Shown here: piece after piece, positions 697 through 14,636 of the stretch
How positions within the stretch are numbered: position 1 is the stretch's first letter
How the letters are laid out: the number at the start of each line of letters is the position of its first letter
From: a virus
Lineage: Duplodnaviria; Caudoviricetes
IMG/VR virus record: IMGVR_UViG_3300020181_000032
Location: 1-24,583 of that record
Direction: 5' to 3' (one strand)
DNA length: 24,583 bases
Notes under the pieces: generated by a model
What the model saw: only the letters and a program-made list of their open reading frames with translations
Told to the model about the DNA's origin: nothing
The model's database searches: none
Position numbers and translations under genes: made by a program

Positions 697-2823
697 TCAG
701 GCACCTTCAGCCACCTCAGAGTGGTCAGCCCGAGGCTCGCTTCCGGCGAGATAGTGAAATTGTGCACGCTTCGGTCCGGGCACCCTGACGATCTTGCGTC
801 CGGCCCGGCGGACGGCCTCGGCGACCCGGCGCGAGGAGAGATCGAGGTCGTCCTGGAGGGCGGTGTAGGTGATGCCGGGGTTCTCCTTCAGGTGGGCCAG
901 CACTCGGTCGAGATCGCCCCGCGTCTTGACCGCCGTACGGTTCCAGCCGCCGAAGGTGAGCTGTTGGGTCTCGGCGTCGAAGGTCAGCTGCTCCTCGTCC
1001 ACGTCCACGTCGCGGCCCTCGGCGCGCAGGAAGCGCAGGTTGGTCTCCCGGTCCCGCGTGAGGTACCAGAGGGCATCTGGCCAGGCTTCGAGCCGCTGGG
1101 AGCCGATGGCGGTCTCCTCGCCGGCCTCGACCTTGGCCTTCGGAGTGTGGACCGGCATCACGATCTCGGTGACGCCGGCCTCGTGCTTGATCAGGTCGAG
1201 GTAGTCCAAGAACGTGCTGACCTGGGCCTCGTCGTTGCCGGACTCGATCGAGCCGAGGTAGGCCCGGCTGTACGGGTCGATGATCCACACCTTGACCTGG
1301 CGCTCGGCGAGCCAGCGGACGACCCACTCGCGGATGCGCTCGCTCGCCAGCGGCAACGATCGGCCGCGCAGGTGGAGGGGGTGGACGATGTCGGTGTTGC
1401 GGATGCCCTGCCGGCGCAGCCAGCGCCGATACTGCGTCGAGTCCAGCTCGTAGTTGAAGACCGCCACGCCGCCGTCGACCGGCTCGACCTCGAACTTCCC
1501 GAGGAATGGATCGTGGTCCACCAGGCTGCGGATCAGATTGTTCACCATCGACGTCTTGCCAGCCTTCCGGCCGGCTATCAGCACCGCATTGTGGTTGGCC
1601 CCGAGAATGCCCTTCACCCGCCAGGGGGACTCCTCGTCGGGGAACAGCAGCTCGTCGGTCAGCGTGCCGAAGGTTTCCGGTTCGCGCCAGGTCTTCTCGT
1701 GCTCCTCGATGCGATACCGGCGCCGGGCCTCTTCGGCAATCCGGATCTTTTCGAGCTGCATCTTGACGTTCGACTCGAACAGAACATCGACACCTTCAGC
1801 CGGCGGCGTCTCGCCGTCTTCGACCACCCGGAGCTGGACCCGTTCGTCGTGGCGGACCTGCGGGCCGTTGAAGAGGTCGGAGATCCCGTTGCCGGTCGAC
1901 AGCGGTACGCTCGCGGCCTTGCGACCGACGCGGGCGGCGGCGCCCTCCCACTTCGACGCCAGTCGGGCAGCGTCGAAGTGAGCGTCCTGCGGCGCGCGTT
2001 GCATGAACGTCCGGCGCATCCGGTCCAGGTCGTAGCCGCCGGCGTTCGCCAGCTCGATCAGCCGACAGGCGACGTCGAAGCAGGTCTGGTCCCACGGCTC
2101 GCCGGTGTAGCCCCGCCCGTTCGGCGTCGCCAGCTCGCGCATGCGGTCCAGCCGCTTCAGCTCGCCGTCGATGCCGCTGGTGACGTAGCTCGTGCCGCGT
2201 ACGTCGTCCCAGACCGGGCTCTCGATAGCAGGTGCTTCCTCCGCTGGCGCCTGCTTGGTCAGCCGCTCCACCCAGTTCGCCGGCAGCGCCGGCACCTCGG
2301 TGGGCGCTGGCATGAATCCCACCGGCAGCTCGGTGTCGCTCGGGTCATAGATCTGGACGATCCGGCCGTCGTCGTCGGGATTGGTCGAACCCGGCGCGAG
2401 CAGATAGCGGTGATGGAACTGGATGATCTCCACGCCGGGGCCGAACAACCGCGTCAGCACTGAGACAAACTCAACGCCGACCGGAATGCGGAACAGCAGC
2501 TTGGCCGAGCCGTCCGTACGGGAGGTGATCTTGTACGTCCTCGGTAGCGGACCCAGCTCGGCGATGGCCTTGCCCATCGTGTCCAGGCCCTGCTTGCCGT
2601 TGTAGGCGTCGACGTCGATGGCGACCATGCCCTGCATGACGCGGATCGCGATGTTGCCGTCTGGTTCCTCGACCGTCCAGCCGCCTACGTCGTTGCGCGT
2701 GGGCCACGCACCGTCTGCCCCGGTGAAGCCGTCTGGCGGCGGCGACTTCTTCCCTGGTGGTAACGGAAGTACGCCATGCCAGCCTTTGTCATAGAAGCCA
2801 AGGGCAAAACGCTCATAGGTCAT
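697..2823 (-). CDS. Bifunctional DNA primase/polymerase (Prim-Pol) fused to a RecA-like AAA helicase domain, with probable C-terminal winged helix (708 aa)
   Basis: N-terminus has GWHGVLPL..K.P, NIAI and VAIDVD motifs typical of Prim-Pol. Walker A AGRKAGKTS, Walker B WIIDP, then VHTPK and GSQRLEAWPD. GAAAGG SD 6 nt before ATG. Confidence 0.9.
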   Translation of the reverse strand: MTYERFALGFYDKGWHGVLPLPPGKKSPPPDGFTGADGAWPTRNDVGGWTVEEPDGNIAIRVMQGMVAIDVDAYNGKQGLDTMGKAIAELGPLPRTYKITSRTDGSAKLLFRIPVGVEFVSVLTRLFGPGVEIIQFHHRYLLAPGSTNPDDDGRIVQIYDPSDTELPVGFMPAPTEVPALPANWVERLTKQAPAEEAPAIESPVWDDVRGTSYVTSGIDGELKRLDRMRELATPNGRGYTGEPWDQTCFDVACRLIELANAGGYDLDRMRRTFMQRAPQDAHFDAARLASKWEGAAARVGRKAASVPLSTGNGISDLFNGPQVRHDERVQLRVVEDGETPPAEGVDVLFESNVKMQLEKIRIAEEARRRYRIEEHEKTWREPETFGTLTDELLFPDEESPWRVKGILGANHNAVLIAGRKAGKTSMVNNLIRSLVDHDPFLGKFEVEPVDGGVAVFNYELDSTQYRRWLRRQGIRNTDIVHPLHLRGRSLPLASERIREWVVRWLAERQVKVWIIDPYSRAYLGSIESGNDEAQVSTFLDYLDLIKHEAGVTEIVMPVHTPKAKVEAGEETAIGSQRLEAWPDALWYLTRDRETNLRFLRAEGRDVDVDEEQLTFDAETQQLTFGGWNRTAVKTRGDLDRVLAHLKENPGITYTALQDDLDLSSRRVAEAVRRAGRKIVRVPGPKRAQFHYLAGSEPRADHSEVAEGA

Positions 2824-2877
2824 GCGCAGCCTTTCTCCCCCGAAGGATGTGGTAGCCTCGGGCTCGGTGGTTCGTCG

Positions 2878-2910
2878 GAAAGGGTCGAGGTCTAGTGCCT
2901 CGGCCCTTTC
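2878..2910. promoter_or_regulatory. 13-bp inverted repeat (hairpin, possible attenuator) over the RHH stop and upstream of the primase gene
   Basis: GAAAGGGTCGAGG-tctagtg-CCTCGGCCCTTTC with one non-Watson-Crick pair. Confidence 0.5.
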
Positions 2911-3089
2911 TTAATGTCGGCGGTGTCTGTGGCGGGCTCGTTCTCCCTGAGCCAGTTGGTCAGCGCTCGACGCGCCGCCTCCGACTCGGAGATCTCTAGG
3001 GCCTGGCAGGCTACTCGCAGCCGGCGCCGCACCGAGGACGTGACACGCAGATGGAGGGTGGCTGGTGGGTCGGGTTTCCTCTCGGGCAT
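2892..3089 (-). CDS. Ribbon-helix-helix (CopG/Arc-like) DNA-binding protein (65 aa)
   Basis: TLHLRV beta-ribbon followed by two helices (SSVRRRLRVACQAL, SESEAARRALTNWLRE). ATG 3089 chosen because it lies 7 nt after a -10 hexamer (leaderless). Confidence 0.8.
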   Translation of the reverse strand: MPERKPDPPATLHLRVTSSVRRRLRVACQALEISESEAARRALTNWLRENEPATDTADIKKGPRH

Positions 3090-3127
3090 GGGAGACACCG
3101 TAGCAACCGGTTGCTACGCTAGCCACC
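3090..3127. promoter_or_regulatory. Bidirectional leaderless promoter with perfect 20-bp palindrome CGTAGCAACCGGTTGCTACG (3099-3118)
   Basis: Plus strand TG-C-TACGCT (-10 at 3115-3120), 7 nt, ATG 3128. Minus strand TG-C-TACGGT (-10 at 3102-3097), 7 nt, ATG 3089. Neither gene has an SD. Confidence 0.75.
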
Positions 3128-4714
3128 ATGACGACCACCACCGCGATCCAACTCCGGGACTACCAGCAGGAAGCCATCGAGGCGCTACGCCAGGCGTACG
3201 CCGAGGGCATCCGTGCGCCGGCGGTCGTGCTGCCGACCGGAGCGGGGAAGACGGTGATCTTCAGCTCGATGGCGGCGACGGCGCGCCAGCGCATGCTCAT
3301 CCTCGCGCATCGAGACGAGCTGATCAGCCAAGCGGCCGACAAAGTCCGCTCGATCGCCCCGAACGTCGACCTCGGCATCGTCAAGGCCGAGCGGAACGAG
3401 TCCGACCGGCGCGTGGTGGTCGCCAGCGTCCAGAGCCTGATCAACCCGGTCCGGCGCGAGGCGCTCGGCGACATCGGGATCATCGTCTGCGACGAGGCCC
3501 ACCACGCCACGGCCAAGACCTACCGGAAGATCTTCGACCACTTCCCGGACGCCTTCCGGATCGGCTTCTCCGCCACCCTCGCGCGCACGGACGGCGCCGC
3601 GCTGGGCGAGGTGTGGGACGACGTCGTCTACACCCGCTCGATCCAGGACATGATCGAGGACGGCTACCTCGTCAAGCCGCGCGGCATCCATGTCTCGGTC
3701 GCCGACCTCCACCTGGAGAACGTCAAGGTCCGGGGCGACTTCACCGAGCGGGACCTGGGCCGGGAGCTGATCCGCGCGCTCGCGCCCGAGCTGGCCGCGA
3801 AGGCGTACGTCGAGCACGCCAGCGACCGCTCGGGCCTGCTCTTCACCCCGACCGTCGAGGCGGCGTACGCCTTCGGCGACGCGCTGAACGACCAGGGCGT
3901 CAAGACCGAGGTGGTCCACGGCGCGATGCCGGTGGACGAGCGTCGAGGCATCCTGGCCCGGCTGGAGTCGGGCGAGACCCAGGTGGTCAGCAACTGCATG
4001 GTGCTGACCGAGGGCTTCGACTGCCCTCGGGTCTCCTGCGTGGTGATCGCCCGGCCGACGAAGTCCGCGCCGCTCTACACCCAGATCGTCGGCCGCGTGC
4101 TGCGGCCGTTCCCCGGCAAGGTCGACGCTCTGGTGCTCGACATCACCGGCGTGTCGAGCAAGGTCAAGCTCGCCACCCTCGCCGACCTCCTCGGCGCGGA
4201 GAAGCGCGAGCAGGCCGACCCGGTCGAGCAGCTGGAGGAGGAGCCGACCGAGCGCGAGCGCATCGACATCGACTACGCCACCGGTGACGAGCTGCTGGCC
4301 CGCGAGGTCGACCTGTTCGCAGAGTCGACCTCGGCCTGGGCGAAGACCGCCGCCGGGACGTGGTTCCTGCCCGCCGGCGACAAGAACTACGTGTTCCTCC
4401 GCCAGCAGCCCGACGCCACCTGGAAGGTCTGGCAGCTGTCGAAGGCTGAGGGCTTCGCCGACCACGGCGGCGACCTCGGGCTGCGGGCGGCGAAGCGTCT
4501 CGGCGAGAAGGTGGCCCGGCGGCACGGCGCGCTCTCCAGCAAGGGCTGGCGCGAGTCGCCGCAGCGGGCCAGCGGCGGCCAGCTGTCCTTCCTGGACAAG
4601 CTGCGGATCAAGTACGACCCGCTGACCGTGACCAAGGGCGAGGCTTCCTCGCTGATCGACGCGAGGCTCGCCACGCAGACGATCGATAGGGCCGTGGCTA
4701 GCTTCGGCCTATGA
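3128..4714 (+). CDS. Superfamily 2 DEAH-box DNA helicase (ResIII/RadD-like, 528 aa)
   Basis: Q motif LRDYQ, motif I LPTGAGKT, II DEAHH, III SAT, V LTEGFD, VI QIVGRVLR. Confidence 0.93.
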   Translation: MTTTTAIQLRDYQQEAIEALRQAYAEGIRAPAVVLPTGAGKTVIFSSMAATARQRMLILAHRDELISQAADKVRSIAPNVDLGIVKAERNESDRRVVVASVQSLINPVRREALGDIGIIVCDEAHHATAKTYRKIFDHFPDAFRIGFSATLARTDGAALGEVWDDVVYTRSIQDMIEDGYLVKPRGIHVSVADLHLENVKVRGDFTERDLGRELIRALAPELAAKAYVEHASDRSGLLFTPTVEAAYAFGDALNDQGVKTEVVHGAMPVDERRGILARLESGETQVVSNCMVLTEGFDCPRVSCVVIARPTKSAPLYTQIVGRVLRPFPGKVDALVLDITGVSSKVKLATLADLLGAEKREQADPVEQLEEEPTERERIDIDYATGDELLAREVDLFAESTSAWAKTAAGTWFLPAGDKNYVFLRQQPDATWKVWQLSKAEGFADHGGDLGLRAAKRLGEKVARRHGALSSKGWRESPQRASGGQLSFLDKLRIKYDPLTVTKGEASSLIDARLATQTIDRAVASFGL

Positions 4715-4763: not shown

Positions 4764-5261
4764 ATGGGCACCCACGGACCACTCGGCAAGCGCTCGTCCG
4801 AGAAGATGCGGCCGGCACACTGGAAGCGCAACGACGGGAAGGCCGACGAGACGCCGGTGATCACGGTCGACGCCACCCCGGTGATTGTCCCGGAGCCCGA
4901 CGAGGACTGGCACCCCGTCGCTCGGCGGATGTTCGACTCCCTCGAAGCCTCCGCGCACGCCGTCTTCTACACCCAGTCGGACTGGGGCGTCATCTACCTC
5001 ATCTGCGAGAACCTCTCGCGCGACCTGAAGCCGAAGTTCGTCGGTGTCAACGAGGCCACCGGCGAGGTGCTCACCCGCTCGGTGCCGATCGCCGGCTCCA
5101 GCCTGGCCGCGTACACGAAGATGCTTGGCAACGTGCTGGCCACCGAGGCCGACCGTCGCCGCCTGAAGATCGAGGTCGAGATGAACGTCGGCGACGACGA
5201 CGTTCCCGAGGCCCCGCTGAGCCTCACCGAGCGCAGGGAAAAGATGCTGAAGGAGGCGTAA
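4764..5261 (+). CDS. terS: Terminase small subunit (actinophage type, 165 aa)
   Basis: MGTHGPLGKR N-terminus, WHPVARRMFDSL..FY..SDW and TEADRRRLKIEV resemble mycobacteriophage L5-type small terminases. AGGAG SD; upstream of TerL. Confidence 0.85.
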   Translation: MGTHGPLGKRSSEKMRPAHWKRNDGKADETPVITVDATPVIVPEPDEDWHPVARRMFDSLEASAHAVFYTQSDWGVIYLICENLSRDLKPKFVGVNEATGEVLTRSVPIAGSSLAAYTKMLGNVLATEADRRRLKIEVEMNVGDDDVPEAPLSLTERREKMLKEA

Positions 5262-5404
5262 TGCCAGGGAAGCAGGTCAAGAACTGGCGCCAATACCACG
5301 CCCTGAAACGCAAGGGCTACTCGAAGACCAAGGCTGCCAAGATCACAAATGCTTCTGCGGCAAAGCGCCGAGTCAAGTCCCGCCGACGTCGTAAGAGGAG
5401 GTGA
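5261..5404 (+). CDS. Small, very basic protein (47 aa), not in the ORF track
   Basis: TAATG overlap with terS stop and AGGAGG SD at 5251-5256. Translates MPGKQVKNWRQYHALKRKGYSKTKAAKITNASAAKRRVKSRRRRKRR. Confidence 0.8.
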   Translation: MPGKQVKNWRQYHALKRKGYSKTKAAKITNASAAKRRVKSRRRRKRR

Positions 5405-5410
5405 TACCCC

Positions 5411-7281
5411 ATAACAGCCCTCCAAGAGCTGCCCACGTACGTCATTGAGCCCGTTGCGATCGGCCCCACCTGGACCAAGGGGCCCGATGGCAACTACATC
5501 ACGCCGTCGCTGACCCTTGGCTGGCAGGTGATCGACTGGATTCACGCCAACCTGCTCAATGACGAGGGGGAGCCGTTCCGATTGACCCTGGAACAGCGTC
5601 GCTTCCTCCTCTGGTTCTACGCCATCAATAAGGACGGAAAGTTCGTTTATCGATCTGCCATCCTGCAGCGTCTAAAGGGCTGGGGTTTACCGGAAAAGAC
5701 CCGTTAGGCGCGGCTATTGCCGCCGTTGAATTCGTCGGCCCGTGTCGCTTCTCGCATTTCGCCGAGGAGGACATGGATGAGATCGGTGTCGCCAAGGGCG
5801 AGCCGGTCGGAAAGCAGAACAAGCGGGCGTGGATCGACATCGTCTCGGTGTCGAAGTTCGCGACCCGGAACACGATGCGGATCTTCCCCGGTCTGTTCAC
5901 CCAGGACTGCAAGGACCGCCATCGGATCGAGATCGGCAAGGAGATCATCTACGCCCACTTCGGGCAGCGGACGATCCAGGCCACCACCTCCAACCCCGCC
6001 ACCCTCCAGGGTGGTCGGTCCAGCTTCGTGCTGATGAACGAGACGCACGAGTGGCTGGTGGCCAACGGCGGCCACGAGCTTCAGCTGACGATCGAGAACA
6101 ACGCGACCAAGTCCAAGGACGGTGCGGCGCGGACCCTGGCCATCACCAACGCCTACGAGCCCAGCGAGGACTCGGTCGCCCAGCGGATGCGCGAGGCGTG
6201 GGAGGACGAGCGGGCCGGTCAGGCCATCGACACCGGCGTGCTCTACGACTCCCTGGAGGCGCCGGCGGACGCCCGGATGTCGCCACCGGTGCCACGCGGC
6301 TCCCCGCTGCCTAGCGACGAGGAGGTCAAGGCGTACCTCGCGGCCATCGTGACGGCCGTTCGAGGCGACTCCGACTGGCTCGACGTCGACCGCATCGTCC
6401 GACGCATCCTGTCCCGCGACAACCCGGTCAGCCAGAGTCGGCGGTTCTGGTTCAACCAGATCGTGGCGCTGGAGGACGCCTGGGTCCACCCGGCCGCGAT
6501 CGACGCCGCCGAGGACCCCATCGTGCGCGCGGCGCGGCAGTACGAGGGCGACACCCTTCGCGCCGGCTGGATCGTTCAGCCGGACGAGCCGATCGTGGCC
6601 TTCTTCGACGGCTCGAAGTCCGATGACTCCACCGGGCTGGTCGGCTGCCGTCTCTCCGATGGCTACACCTTCGTCATCGGGCTCTGGGAGAAGCCGTACG
6701 CCGAGCGCCGCGTCAACCGGAGCGAGAACCTGCCGTTCGCGGCCTGGAAGGCGCCCCGAGAGGCCGTCGACCGCCGCGTCGAGGAGATGTTCGCCCGGTT
6801 CACCGTCGTCGCATTCTGGGGCGACCCCTCGCACGCCAAGGACGACGACGACGAGGACGCGGCCTCCTACTGGGGTCCGCACATCGACGCCTGGCACCGC
6901 GAGTACGGCGACCAGCTGAAGTGCTGGTCGGTCCAGTCGGGCCACTCCCAGCACTCGGTGCTCTGGGACATGACCTCACCCGAGCGCACCCGCATTTTCA
7001 CCGAGGCGGCCGAGACGTTCGTGGAGGACATCGAGGCGACCGACGACCTGGAGCAGTACCAGCCGACCTTCCGGATCGACGGCCATCCGAAGCTGAAGGA
7101 GCACCTCCGCAACGCCCACCAGTATCCGAACAAGTACGGCGTGTCGCTGTGGAAGGGGTCGCGGGGGTCCTCCCGTAAGATCGACCTCGCCGTCTGCGCG
7201 GTCGGCGCCCGCATGCTTCGTCGCGTCGTCTTGAATCGGGGCCTCGAAGAGCCTGACAAGCCCGGTGAATTCTGGTGGTGA
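5411..7281 (+). CDS. terL: Terminase large subunit in two reading frames (join 5411-5686, 5695-7281; about 620 aa); needs recoding across an 8-nt gap
   Basis: 5' frame: IGPTW..TLGWQVIDW..LTLEQRRFLLWFYAI..YRSAILQRLKGWG, stopping at TAG 5705-5707. The -1 frame continues GKDPLGAAIAAVEFVGPCRFSHF into the 5773-7281 ORF (Walker B FVLMNETH, coupling ITNA, nuclease FFDGSKSDDSTG and KIDLAV). Joined, they give the RLKGWGKDP Walker A of L5-like terminases. ATA start inferred. Confidence 0.9.
5669..5710 (+). other. Candidate recoding site in terL: GGT take-off (5684-5686), TTA (5687-5689), GGA landing (5692-5694), inside a predicted hairpin
   Basis: Sequence TGG GGT TTA CC GGA AAA GAC CCG TTA. CGTCTAA (5669-5675) pairs with TTAGGCG (5704-5710), and GGGTTT (5683-5688) pairs with AGACCC (5697-5702). 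Confidence 0.7.
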
Positions 7282-7291
7282 AGGAGGCTGT

Positions 7292-8734
7292 ATGGCTCGG
7301 AACAGGGCGATGAGCCCAGGCGGCGCGACCCAGTTGGCACGGGAGTACTTCCCGAGCTTTCTGGAGCAGCGCGAGCACGTGAACAAGATCCAGAAGTGGT
7401 ACCGGCCGCGCATGGGCGAAGACCTGGAGGAAGGCCCCTTCATCCCCAAGGACGCTGACATCTCCCCGGAGTATCACGACCTGGCTGAGCGCTCGACCAC
7501 GCCCTGGATGTGGCTGGTCGTCAAGTCGCTGGCCCAGACGATGTACGTCGATGGCGTCCGCCGGCCGTCGTCGGAGGAGAACATGGAGGTCTGGCGGATC
7601 TGGCGGCGCAACCGTTGGAACGCCCGGCAGATCCAGCTCCACCGCGCGGTCCTCGCGCATGGCTTCGCCTTCGCGACCGTGCTGCCCGGCACGGAGCCGC
7701 TGACCGGGCTCCGCACCTCGCTCGCGCGGCCGGTCTCAGCCGCTCGGATGGCCGCCTTCTACGCCGACGACACCGCCGATGACTTCCCGCTCTTCGCGAT
7801 CAAGGGCACGCCGATCGAGGACGGCCACCACGTCGCCCAGGCGTGGAACGTCGAGCTGTGGGACGAGTGGGCGGTCCACTACCTGCGCTGTGAGGGCGAG
7901 GGCGCCACCGCCCAGGACTGGACCTACCTCGACCACCTCGTACACGGTTCCGGGCTCACCCCGGTCGTACGCCACGCCCCTGACGTCGACCTGGCGGACG
8001 GCAAGGCGTGGGGCGAGGTCGAGCCCTTCATCCCGATGGCCAAGCGCATCGACCAGGACGTCTTCGACCGGCTCATCGTTCAGCGCTTCGGCGCCTGGAA
8101 GATCCGCTGGGTCACCGGCATGGCCATCCCGAGCGACCCGGCCGCGAAGAAGCAGCTGCTCGCCGGCGGCTTCATGGGCAGCACCTCCGCCGAGACGAAG
8201 TTCGGCACGCTGGAGGAGACCGACCTGAACGGCTTCATCGCCGCCAAGGACGCCGACCTGCGAGACCTCTCCGCCGTCTCCCAGACTCCGCCGCACCACC
8301 TGCTCGGGCTCTCCTCGAACCTCCAGGCTGAGGCGCTCGCGGCGGCCGAGGCCGGCCTTCAGCGCAAGTCGGCCGACTACCGGACCGGCATGGGCGAGAG
8401 CTACGAGCAGCAGCTCCAGCTCATGGCCATGGTTGCCGGCCTCCGCGACGAGGCGGCCGAGCACGACATGCAGATCCGCTGGCGCGACACCGAGTCGCGG
8501 TCCTTCGCCCAGGCGGCCCAGGCCCTCGGCATCGTCGCCCAGCAGCTGCGGGTGCCGGTCGAGATGCTCTGGGAGCGCATCCCAGGGTGGACCGATGGCG
8601 ACACCGAGCGGGCCCAGGAGCTGATCCGGAACGGCTCCCTCGACCAGTTCATCGAGGAGCTGACCCGAGGCGCCAGCAGCCCAGCGGGCATCCCCGGCGC
8701 CCAGGAGCCCGCCGGAGAGATCGGGCGTGGTTAG
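7292..8734 (+). CDS. Portal protein (SPP1 gp6-like, 480 aa)
   Basis: Follows terL; AAGGAGG SD before ATG 7292. Motifs WMWLVVKSLAQTM, WRIWRRNRWNARQ, SQTPPHHLLG..NLQAEAL..AE and IRWRDTE. Confidence 0.9.
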   Translation: MARNRAMSPGGATQLAREYFPSFLEQREHVNKIQKWYRPRMGEDLEEGPFIPKDADISPEYHDLAERSTTPWMWLVVKSLAQTMYVDGVRRPSSEENMEVWRIWRRNRWNARQIQLHRAVLAHGFAFATVLPGTEPLTGLRTSLARPVSAARMAAFYADDTADDFPLFAIKGTPIEDGHHVAQAWNVELWDEWAVHYLRCEGEGATAQDWTYLDHLVHGSGLTPVVRHAPDVDLADGKAWGEVEPFIPMAKRIDQDVFDRLIVQRFGAWKIRWVTGMAIPSDPAAKKQLLAGGFMGSTSAETKFGTLEETDLNGFIAAKDADLRDLSAVSQTPPHHLLGLSSNLQAEALAAAEAGLQRKSADYRTGMGESYEQQLQLMAMVAGLRDEAAEHDMQIRWRDTESRSFAQAAQALGIVAQQLRVPVEMLWERIPGWTDGDTERAQELIRNGSLDQFIEELTRGASSPAGIPGAQEPAGEIGRG

Positions 8735-13827: not shown

Positions 13828-14184
13828 ATGGCTGAGAACAAGAACAAGGTAACCCCGATCGACAAGCCGACCATCAACCTCGACGTCGCCGAGCGCGAGA
13901 AGACACACAAGCCGTTCGTCGCCACGATCGAGGGGAAGAACTACACCTTCCTCGACGCCCGTGAGGTGGACTGGCAGCTGCTGCTGGCGAACTACCAGGA
14001 CCCCGCCGCCCTCCTCTCAATCGTGGTTCGCGAGGAGGACCAGGAGGAATTCTTCAAGCTGACGATCCCCTGGTGGAAGATCGACCTGCTCAGCAAGGCG
14101 TACGAGCGTCACTTCGGTCTCGCTGACGAGGGTGCGCCAGGCGTCGTGAGGCGACCGGGAAACCCGCGCGGCTCGCGTACCTGA
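13828..14184 (+). CDS. Tail assembly chaperone (gpG-like, 118 aa)
   Basis: GAGGAG SD; between tail tube and tape measure; slippery G GGA AAC near the 3' end. Confidence 0.85.
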   Translation: MAENKNKVTPIDKPTINLDVAEREKTHKPFVATIEGKNYTFLDAREVDWQLLLANYQDPAALLSIVVREEDQEEFFKLTIPWWKIDLLSKAYERHFGLADEGAPGVVRRPGNPRGSRT

Positions 14185-14636
14185 TCGGCAAGTACCGAGC
14201 CGAACTGGAATACGACCTCCAGGCGCATCTTGGCGTCGACCTCAACCAGATGTGGCAGGACCGGCAGTGGCGGAAGCTCCTCAGCTTCATCGACCACCTT
14301 CCCCGGAACAGCTACTACGTCGAGGCCGCGTCGAACGACGAAGAGCACGCCAGGATGCTCCTGGAGGCATCGGAGAACCAGCCGAAGCGTGAGTATCGGC
14401 CGCCGATGTCGTTGTGGACGATGGAGGCCGAGATCCTCGCCGACATCGCCGACCGAGTCCAGCAGTTGACCATCACGACACGGGCGGCGAACAGCCGCAA
14501 GGGAGCAAAGCTCCCGAAGTTCGTGCCGTACGCTCGCCCCAGGCATGCGATCGAGCCGCTGCGCCGAGCGCGTCGCCAGGAACGACACGAGGCCCTCGCT
14601 CGACGGGTGCTTCGCCGGAAGAGAGAGGCGGGGTAG
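13828..14636 (+). CDS. Tail assembly chaperone, -1 frameshift product (gpGT-like)
   Basis: G_GGA_AAC at 14157-14163 is in phase. The -1 frame reads KPARLAYLIGKYRAELEYDLQAHLGVDLNQM into ORF 14250-14636, ending next to the tape measure ATG. Confidence 0.85.

Follow-up and report, generated by a model that had tools for sequence, protein, structure and literature searches.

A coding gap in a phage terminase gene, likely bypassed by ribosomes, and its probable link to a mobile HNH-nuclease cassette

The IMG/VR virus record IMGVR_UViG_3300020181_000032 (Duplodnaviria; Caudoviricetes) was analyzed over its positions 1 to 24,583, here called the window, a 24.6-kb fragment of about 67% G+C from a soil phage. 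Its gene for the terminase large subunit (terL, protein TerL) is broken within the stretch encoding the putative ATP-binding loop, where 8 nt interrupt the coding sequence and shift its reading frame. The break is genuine, and the frames are arranged as described below. Relatives carry inserts of 4-16 nt at the same site, an unusual start and, in some cases, an HNH gene, and this combination indicates that ribosomes likely hop over the insert and that the insert likely came as the shield of a selfish element. As a whole, we consider the locus quite probably best explained by a bypassed coding gap which likely arrived with a mobile HNH-nuclease cassette, the nuclease being absent in the window.

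The split terL gene and the gaps of its relatives

Around the junction, the plus strand reads CGT CTA AAG GGC TGG GGT (5669-5686), TTACCGGA (5687-5694), and AAA GAC CCG TTA GGC. terL is spread over two frames: frame 0 proceeds to ...KGWGLPEKTR and ends at the stop codon TAG (5705-5707), and deleting 5687-5694 joins the frames to give RLKGWGKDPLGAAIA, i.e., RLKGWG followed by KDPLGAAIAAVEFVGPCRF. A first-pass annotation, made from the sequence alone, had described the 8-nt gap, the frame-0 stop at TAG 5705, and the restoration of RLKGWG/KDP upon removal of the 8 nt, all of which was confirmed when the sequence was rechecked. It had also called TTA, the first codon of the gap, nearly absent elsewhere and the neighboring genes intact. 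Indeed, the 17 other window genes contain one in-frame TTA in 6052 codons (codon 21 of the primase-polymerase gene, 2761-2763, minus strand), and the neighbors have open frames, most of them with phage family matches. Within terL, a second TTA (5704) is the fourth codon after the predicted landing site and overlaps the frame-0 stop TAG.

Both halves match PHROG 9, the terminase large subunit family (5' part, E 8.7e-15; 3' part, E 6.2e-41), and the split gene is the sole terminase large-subunit gene of the phage contig. Counted over both parts, the joined TerL retains 23/23 invariant and 76/81 near-invariant residues. K77, G78, G80, K81, D82, and P83 do not vary among the 72 gapless TerLs that were aligned out of 101 usable rows. 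The loop GWGKDP is predicted to be the Walker A, i.e., ATP-binding, loop; this assignment is based on the motif and on a weak alignment, below threshold, with ARKNGKT of the terminase PDB 6z6d.

Among 66 IMG/VR relatives, 59 reach the junction; 57 of these are gapless and two carry stop-led gaps. A pattern scan of IMG/VR (54/64 parts) yielded at least 119 loci with at least 51 gapped terL genes, and a scan of GTDB yielded 56 loci, 35 of them gapped, in Streptomyces, Kitasatospora, Nocardia, Gordonia, Amycolatopsis, Saccharopolyspora, Lentzea, Actinoplanes, Nocardioides, and Salininema. Gaps thus span at least ten actinobacterial genera. Of 12 loci from a metagenome scan, L364 is identical to the window and the others are at most 57% identical to it. 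After de-replication, at least 66 gapped and 130 gapless clusters, which are not independent lineages, and at least 47 distinct gaps of 4-16 nt remained. Since the scan patterns demand Trp as well as AAG as the lysine codon and are limited to gaps of up to 30 nt, other gaps are missed. The gapless pattern is estimated to occur in about 990 IMG/VR stretches, such that gaps make up roughly 6% of the TerL family.

The flanks restore GWG/KDP exactly in all 66 gapped clusters. Gap length modulo 3 is 1, 2, and 0 in 31, 20, and 15 clusters, respectively. The last gap codon is GGC in 34 clusters, GGT in 16, AGC in eight, GGA in six, and GAC and CGC in one each. The first is TTA in 30, a stop in 27 (TGA 13, TAG 11, TAA 3), and another codon in nine (AGA 3, CCA 2, and one each of AGG, ATA, CAA, and GAT). 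Hence, the same-site inserts that the first-pass annotation had proposed to look for in related terL genes do exist, in 66 clusters, but the TTA that they were to keep comes first in only 30. Of the 47 distinct gaps, 39 begin with TTA or a stop, as compared to 8% expected from base composition, and 37 end in the triplet GGN. The codon ahead of the gap, the predicted take-off codon, is GGT in 33/66 gapped versus 20/130 gapless clusters and GGG in 0/66 versus 14/130. The pair found in the window, GGT take-off and GGA landing, occurs in 6/66 clusters, and TTACCGGC, one base from the window gap, is common to seven. TTA within 15 codons past the landing site is present in 6/66 gapped clusters, five of them stop-led, versus 0/130 gapless ones.

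Several loci deviate in single features. The shortest gaps, 4 nt in length (AGGC, TAGC), were found in L108, L123, L230, L240 (Gordonia), and L203 (Nocardia); here, pause and landing codons overlap. Nine gapped clusters (L067, L068, L086, L143, L181, L189, L193, L201, and L221) carry TTA at a second site, the g7/g8 site of phage phiHau3. It is codon 101 after the first gap, behind a Ser codon, with a 10-nt gap following in 8/9; in L086 and L201 it occurs although the first gap is stop-led. L077 and L102 have atypical gaps (a U-run and a GAC landing, respectively) and 3' frames of unusual length (906 and 777 codons), which suggest inserted domains such as inteins. In L381 (901-1140), L205, and L219, terL is rearranged or interrupted elsewhere.

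The features of the window locus are as follows:

4764..5261, plus strand: terS, terminase small subunit (Pfam PF25673 Terminase_7, E 1.4e-26)
5261..5404, plus strand: basic open reading frame (ORF) of 47 amino acids (aa), DUF7218, in the slot held by HNH in gapped relatives, ending AGG AGG TGA (PF23855, E 3.4e-14)
5395..5404, plus strand: extended Shine-Dalgarno-like module GAGGAGGTGA, its TGA being the stop of the upstream ORF (sequence)
5411..5413, plus strand: likely ATA start of terL, followed by the shared N-terminus I-[PST]-[ATP]-L (sequence, relatives)
5411..5686, plus strand: terL 5' part, 92 codons, ending KGWG (PHROG 9)
5683..5689, plus strand: heptamer G_GGU_UUA, the rival -1 frameshift site (in 4/20 net -1 gap clusters)
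5684..5686, plus strand: predicted take-off codon GGT (Gly) (codon counts in relatives)
5687..5694, plus strand: 8-nt coding gap TTACCGGA, with TTA first and the predicted landing codon GGA (5692-5694) last (sequence, relatives)
5695..7281, plus strand: terL 3' part, 528 codons, from the Walker A lysine (KDP) (PHROG 9)
5704..5707, plus strand: second TTA overlapping TAG 5705-5707 (sequence)
7265..8734, plus strand: portal gene, beginning the head-tail module (PHROG 104, E 1.5e-81)

The gene order in the window is primase-polymerase, helicase, terS, the 47-aa basic ORF, terL, portal, and head and tail genes. The primase-polymerase (minus strand) and helicase (plus strand) genes diverge from an intergenic region (2823-3128) with the palindrome GTAGCAACCGGTTGCTAC at about 3100-3117, possibly an operator or origin. 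The tail assembly chaperone ORF (13828-14184) contains, close to its end, an in-frame G_GGA_AAC (14157-14163) that leads into the frame of the ORF at 14250-14636; this is the usual -1 frameshift arrangement.

Start module, HNH nuclease, and the origin of the gap

The window terL contains no in-frame ATG, GTG, or TTG before 5528, i.e., until past the conserved GPTW and TLGW, a feature overlooked in the first-pass annotation. Upstream, GAGGAGGTGA (5395-5404) and a 6-nt spacer are followed by ATA ACA GCC CTC, and, as judged from the sequence, initiation likely occurs at the non-canonical ATA 5411. The GTG within the module is the annotated start in phiHau3-like genes. It is out of frame in the window and in eight other gapped genes, which have ATC or ATT at the same spacing; gapped L239 has an ATG at the spacing of the window's ATA. 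Many gapped terL genes are probably annotated with a wrong start codon.

Among clusters with enough flank, GGRGGTGA precedes terL in 49/51 gapped versus 6/100 gapless ones, and an ATC, ATT, or ATA start behind the module is found in 34/51 versus 1/100. In independent tree pairs, the median p is 0.0005 for the module and 0.002 for the ATH start. Module and N-terminus I-[PST]-[ATP]-L are common to distant clades. A scan of IMG/VR for the module alone, with a pattern designed from gapped genes, gave 15 matches, all of them terL starts, of which 14 are gapped and one ends before the junction; gapless genes outnumber gapped ones by about 16:1, yet none matched. HNH lies upstream in nine of the 15. 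In L381, HNH and module are present and the sequence is cut before the junction. Six gapless terL genes retain the module (L244, L245, L286, L293, L301, and L311); three of them, L286, L293, and L301, neighbor gapped genes on the tree and may be products of a precise gap loss.

According to Pfam, an HNH gene adjoins terL upstream in 6/40 gapped versus 0/56 gapless loci, 150/206 gapless ORFs having been submitted. In addition, L013 shows a weak HNH match two ORFs upstream, and three gapless loci have HNH further upstream. A custom profile from the six HNH genes detected 11/50 gapped versus 0/89 gapless loci, five positives not being seeds. By gap class, this profile matched at 8/20 stop-led, 1/24 TTA-led, and 2/6 other loci; one further TTA-led locus with HNH appeared in the scan for the module alone. 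The link between HNH and gap has a median p of 0.03 in independent tree pairs. A sequence search with the HNH of L007 matched only itself. In L006, L007, L190, L198, and L235, the last codons of the HNH gene together with its stop constitute the GGRGGTGA module, and the 47-aa ORF of the window ends in AGG AGG TGA like several of those HNH genes. These co-occurrences and family statistics are, like the sequence itself, direct observations.

On the TerL tree, the gap is scattered, with 24 changes over 138 rows, 18 of them forced by starred branches (FastTree, unrooted), and gapped genes often stand beside gapless sisters that are 91-96% identical. The synonymous divergence (dS) is higher in the 5' than in the 3' part in 7/7 gapped-gapless sister pairs (L007 counted twice) and in only 4/13 gapped-gapped pairs; an excess of 5' divergence in sister pairs is what a co-converted tract would give. 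We regard it as probable, on grounds of this comparative analysis, that the gap arrived with a mobile HNH cassette, and, by analogy with T4 mobA/gene 60, we infer the following course, including the cutting and the immunity. An HNH gene between terS and terL would cut gapless terL near the conserved site; repair would copy in HNH, the new start region, the terL 5' part, and the gap; and the gap would then protect the copy from the nuclease.

Several observations weigh against this origin. No HNH match was obtained in the window, where the DUF7218 gene occupies the slot, and 39/50 gapped loci lack HNH, TTA-led gaps having it in just one of 24 cases. The TerL tree fits repeated gain or repeated loss alike, and the 5' parts taken alone give a tree that still requires 20 changes. 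The window would be at most a nuclease-less derivative of the cassette.

The first-pass annotation had explained the gap differently, namely as a developmental sensor gating DNA packaging, with TerL made only when host tRNA-Leu(UAA) is scarce. This corresponds to the bldA model (Smith 2013, as described in PMC10732093) and would be compatible with a mobile origin followed by later use. In its favor, TTA leads 30/66 gaps, TTA-led gaps occur in 16/25 Streptomycetaceae loci versus 2/10 others (p 0.027) and mostly persist without HNH, nine genes carry TTA at the second (g7/g8) site, and, according to PMC10732093, a UUA cassette yielded no bypass product in E. coli. However, 36/66 gaps are not TTA-led; 27 of these are stop-led, also in 6/25 Streptomycetaceae loci, and stop-led gaps are unable to sense tRNA-Leu. 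Among Streptomyces prophage genes of 93-95% protein identity, TTA- and TGA-led gaps alternate. In the window, the second in-frame TTA must be decoded in any case. Capsid matches in 401 Streptomyces genomes reach 40% at best, and among named phages, those of Mycobacterium and Arthrobacter give the closest matches to a capsid and a tail protein (35-47%). The gap co-occurs instead with the start module and the HNH gene. As the reason for the gap, tRNA-Leu(UAA) scarcity is therefore rather unlikely in our view, and a strict bldA switch is not supported for the window locus.

The enrichment of TTA in Streptomycetaceae fits UUA acting as a near-stop there, and a later role as sensor is possible. The window phage is actinobacterial by homology, and its host may or may not be a Streptomyces. 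For host prediction, its capsid, tail, and portal proteins were compared without a close relative emerging, and there are no tRNA genes in the window.

Decoding of the gap

How the gap is decoded can be approached through the family. All 15 in-frame gaps open with a stop, as compared to 11/32 distinct out-of-frame gaps, and no in-frame sense insertion at the junction was seen among 196 clusters, so that added residues are apparently not tolerated. The -1 path contains a stop in 2/20 net -1 gaps (L170, L242), and the +1 path in 5/31 net +1 gaps (L101, L148, L156, L205, L221). Taken together, the stop-led in-frame gaps and the seven gaps with a stop in the frameshift path make bypassing likely and -1 frameshifting unlikely. 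Gapped genes are under purifying selection: in 13 pairs, the ratio of nonsynonymous to synonymous divergence (dN/dS) ranges from 0.04 to 0.27 in the 3' part and from 0.12 to 0.46 in the 5' part. The bypass from GGU to GGA proposed by the first-pass annotation thereby gains support from the pattern over all 66 gapped clusters, and bypassing of the 8-nt gap, rather than frameshifting, is likely in the window as well.

For the window, we infer the following sequence of events from the start to the hop. Translation would start at ATA 5411 behind the strong Shine-Dalgarno sequence and proceed to KGWG. As the rare UUA fills slowly, peptidyl-tRNA-Gly would release GGU, slide 8 nt, and re-pair at GGA, whereupon decoding would resume at AAA GAC CCG to give a TerL of 620 aa whose GWGKDP loop is intact. 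Decoding of UUA would instead lead ribosomes to a 98-aa dead end. UUA would be one of several interchangeable pause codons.

Other observations count against bypassing at the window locus. The take-off codon GGU and the landing codon GGA differ in their third base, and the in-frame GGC 5707 is a competing landing site whose use would delete KDPL. Only 4/20 net -1 gaps, that of the window among them, carry a canonical heptamer, and no stop blocks the -1 path in the window. No excess of hairpins or internal Shine-Dalgarno sequences was detected in 66 gapped versus 130 gapless clusters, so neither is used as support, and the window shows no significant fold (z -0.66 to 0.13) or internal Shine-Dalgarno signal. 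For the window itself, dN/dS is uninterpretable, its nearest relatives being 58-59% identical with raw 3'-part values of about 0.6. L077, with its U-run, and L102, with its GAC landing, may be frameshift cases.

An 8-bp stem (5668-5675 / 5704-5711) is present in the window but unsupported. GGA landing is found in 6/33 clusters after GGT take-off and in 0/31 after GGC (p 0.025). The idea that tRNA-Gly(UCC) reads GGU and then lands on GGA fits these counts; a supporting paper was not found in the literature searched, and the idea was set aside.

The heptamer raises the alternative of a programmed -1 frameshift at G_GGU_UUA, which would produce a TerL with three extra loop residues (KGWG L/F TG KDP). 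In phage tail assembly chaperones, a programmed -1 frameshift at an X_XXY_YYZ heptamer joins two frames, and the terL site of the window likewise has an X_XXY_YYZ heptamer between two frames; the difference is that at terL the shift would add residues to an invariant loop and that the heptamer is unconserved. The window offers a canonical heptamer, a slow A-site codon, and an open -1 path, as well as an unmatched landing for the hop; the same phage has the canonical G_GGA_AAC in its tail chaperone gene; and profile scores hardly separate the products (720 versus 711-712 bits). Against it stand the 15/20 net -1 gaps without a canonical slippery heptamer, only 4/20 keeping G_GGU_UUA, and, among the seven clusters with TTACCGGC, six with GGC take-off and no slippery heptamer. 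Moreover, the -1 path is closed by a stop in two net -1 gaps, in-frame sense insertions are absent from the 196 clusters, the loop residues K77, G78, G80, K81, D82, and P83 are invariant, and no significant 3' structure was found. Of the two slippery sites named in the first-pass annotation, G_GGU_UUA (5683-5689) is canonical, but G_GAA_AAG does not have the X_XXY_YYZ form. Frameshifting thus fails as the mechanism of the family and is conceivable, at low probability, for the window locus alone.

Bypassing would also be dispensable if the two parts were made separately or if the 8 nt were removed from RNA or DNA. GAGGAGG occurs just ahead of ATG 5773, and short GG repeats flank gaps. However, a start at ATG 5773, with a spacing of only 2 nt, would lose the Walker A lysine and six invariant residues. 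The joined form is absent from DNA contigs, though contigs drop rare variants. All that the 4-16-nt gaps share is their in-frame ends, a slow codon and a Gly-like codon, i.e., a pattern tied to the reading frame. We therefore consider this explanation very unlikely.

Where a check of the 8 nt in raw reads had been advised, they were found in contigs of three runs, i.e., in assembled sequence and not in reads. Logan contigs of runs X1 (depth 54), X3 (7.5), and X4 (2.9) span the junction without difference, and the Logan contigs listed for the junction, in which rare variants are dropped, contain no indel or joined form. The contig of run X2 ends 21 nt beyond the gap and was excluded; X1-X4 are all 2018 soil metagenomes. 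No RNA dataset is listed as carrying the locus. That the assembly is wrong, or that the gene is dead and the element defective, is the least probable explanation of all: the evidence consists of contigs, the window itself may derive from X1 and X3 among the three bridging runs, and the window contig is a fragment, but the three runs agree at the junction, the break falls exactly at a published site with a near-copy of a published gap, all 23 invariant residues are kept, and gapped relatives are under purifying selection.

Relation to known systems and implications

Antonov et al. 2023 (PMC10732093) found 3/100 genes gapped at this g6/g7 junction, all UUA-led: phiHau3 with 10 nt plus a second gap, S. 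catenulae with 7 nt, and StrepC.1, whose gap is given in the supplement as GGC TTA CCGGC AAG, i.e., the 8-nt TTACCGGC. The length of 8 nt is therefore not new. When UUA of a phiHau3 cassette was changed to UAA, the bypass junction peptide was detected in E. coli by mass spectrometry, and full-length protein was detected in S. coelicolor; a 5' hairpin and an internal Shine-Dalgarno sequence as stimulators are only proposals there (PMC10732093). The window resembles these three genes in gene family, in the exact GWG/KDP site, and in a gap with TTA first and a Gly codon last, and TTACCGGC of StrepC.1 is one base off the window's TTACCGGA. The kinship with the phiHau3 site suggested earlier is borne out, the same junction being gapped in three published genes and 66 clusters. 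The window TerL is 38% identical to that of phiHau3 and belongs to another clade, its nearest relatives being those of uncultured phages (up to 61%). It differs further by the GGU-to-GGA pair, the second TTA after landing, and an intact g7/g8 site with no second gap. Whereas the published set of phiHau3 type is all UUA-led, the family surveyed here adds stop-led and other gaps, the upstream module, and the HNH link. The terms 'HNH', 'AUC', and 'AUU' are absent from the main text of PMC10732093. The literature searched, most subscription papers lying outside it, yielded no mention of stop-led or non-Streptomyces gaps, of the non-canonical start module, or of the HNH link.

A second parallel is the 50-nt bypass of T4 gene 60 with the MobA element, in which the gap frequently outlasts a lost nuclease (Manning and Atkins, bioRxiv 10.1101/2022.08.31.505936; review Atkins 2016, PMC5009743). 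As there, an HNH gene lies upstream in some gapped relatives of the window, along with an element-linked N-terminal stretch; the gap begins with a stop or hungry codon and ends at the landing codon; and gapped genes are scattered among near-identical gapless ones. In contrast to the 50-nt gap of gene 60, terL gaps measure 4-16 nt (8 nt in the window) and are not enriched in hairpins or internal Shine-Dalgarno sequences. Unlike MobA, the terL-linked HNH sits between terS and terL and does not split an ORF, the terL start is non-canonical, and cutting is putative. A third parallel is the tape measure gene of the cluster O mycobacteriophage Corndog, which combines an upstream HNH insertion with the lack of a canonical start codon and for which proteomics showed translation from upstream of any ATG, GTG, or TTG (PMC4351075). 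HNH upstream and a non-canonical start are likewise found in the gapped terL family; Corndog differs in the gene concerned, in having an ACG start or bypass as options, and in lacking an internal coding gap.

On its own, the window locus is a further member of a published gap type. The wider proposal, which we hold with evenly divided confidence, is that the 'UUA sensor' of phiHau3 may be one aspect of a mobile element that is widespread in actinobacterial phages. This element would comprise an HNH homing nuclease between terS and terL, a strong Shine-Dalgarno sequence with an AUC, AUU, or AUA start, and a bypassed Walker A gap of 4-16 nt as immunity, weak initiation keeping ribosomes sparse enough to hop. 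Sparse ribosome loading is said to help bypassing in T4 gene 60. With about 6% of terminase genes gapped, the window would then be a nuclease-less relic.

Natural examples of programmed bypassing are very few, and the terminase site was previously known from three genes. The 47 distinct gaps at one codon, in all three frames and with varied pause and landing codons, constitute a natural mutational series for the rules of short-range bypass. Near-identical pairs of which one member has gap and HNH and the other lacks both (L007 versus L009/L010) allow a sensor and the scar of a homing nuclease to be told apart by experiment. By the rough estimate given above, some 6% of the TerL family would be annotated as broken genes.

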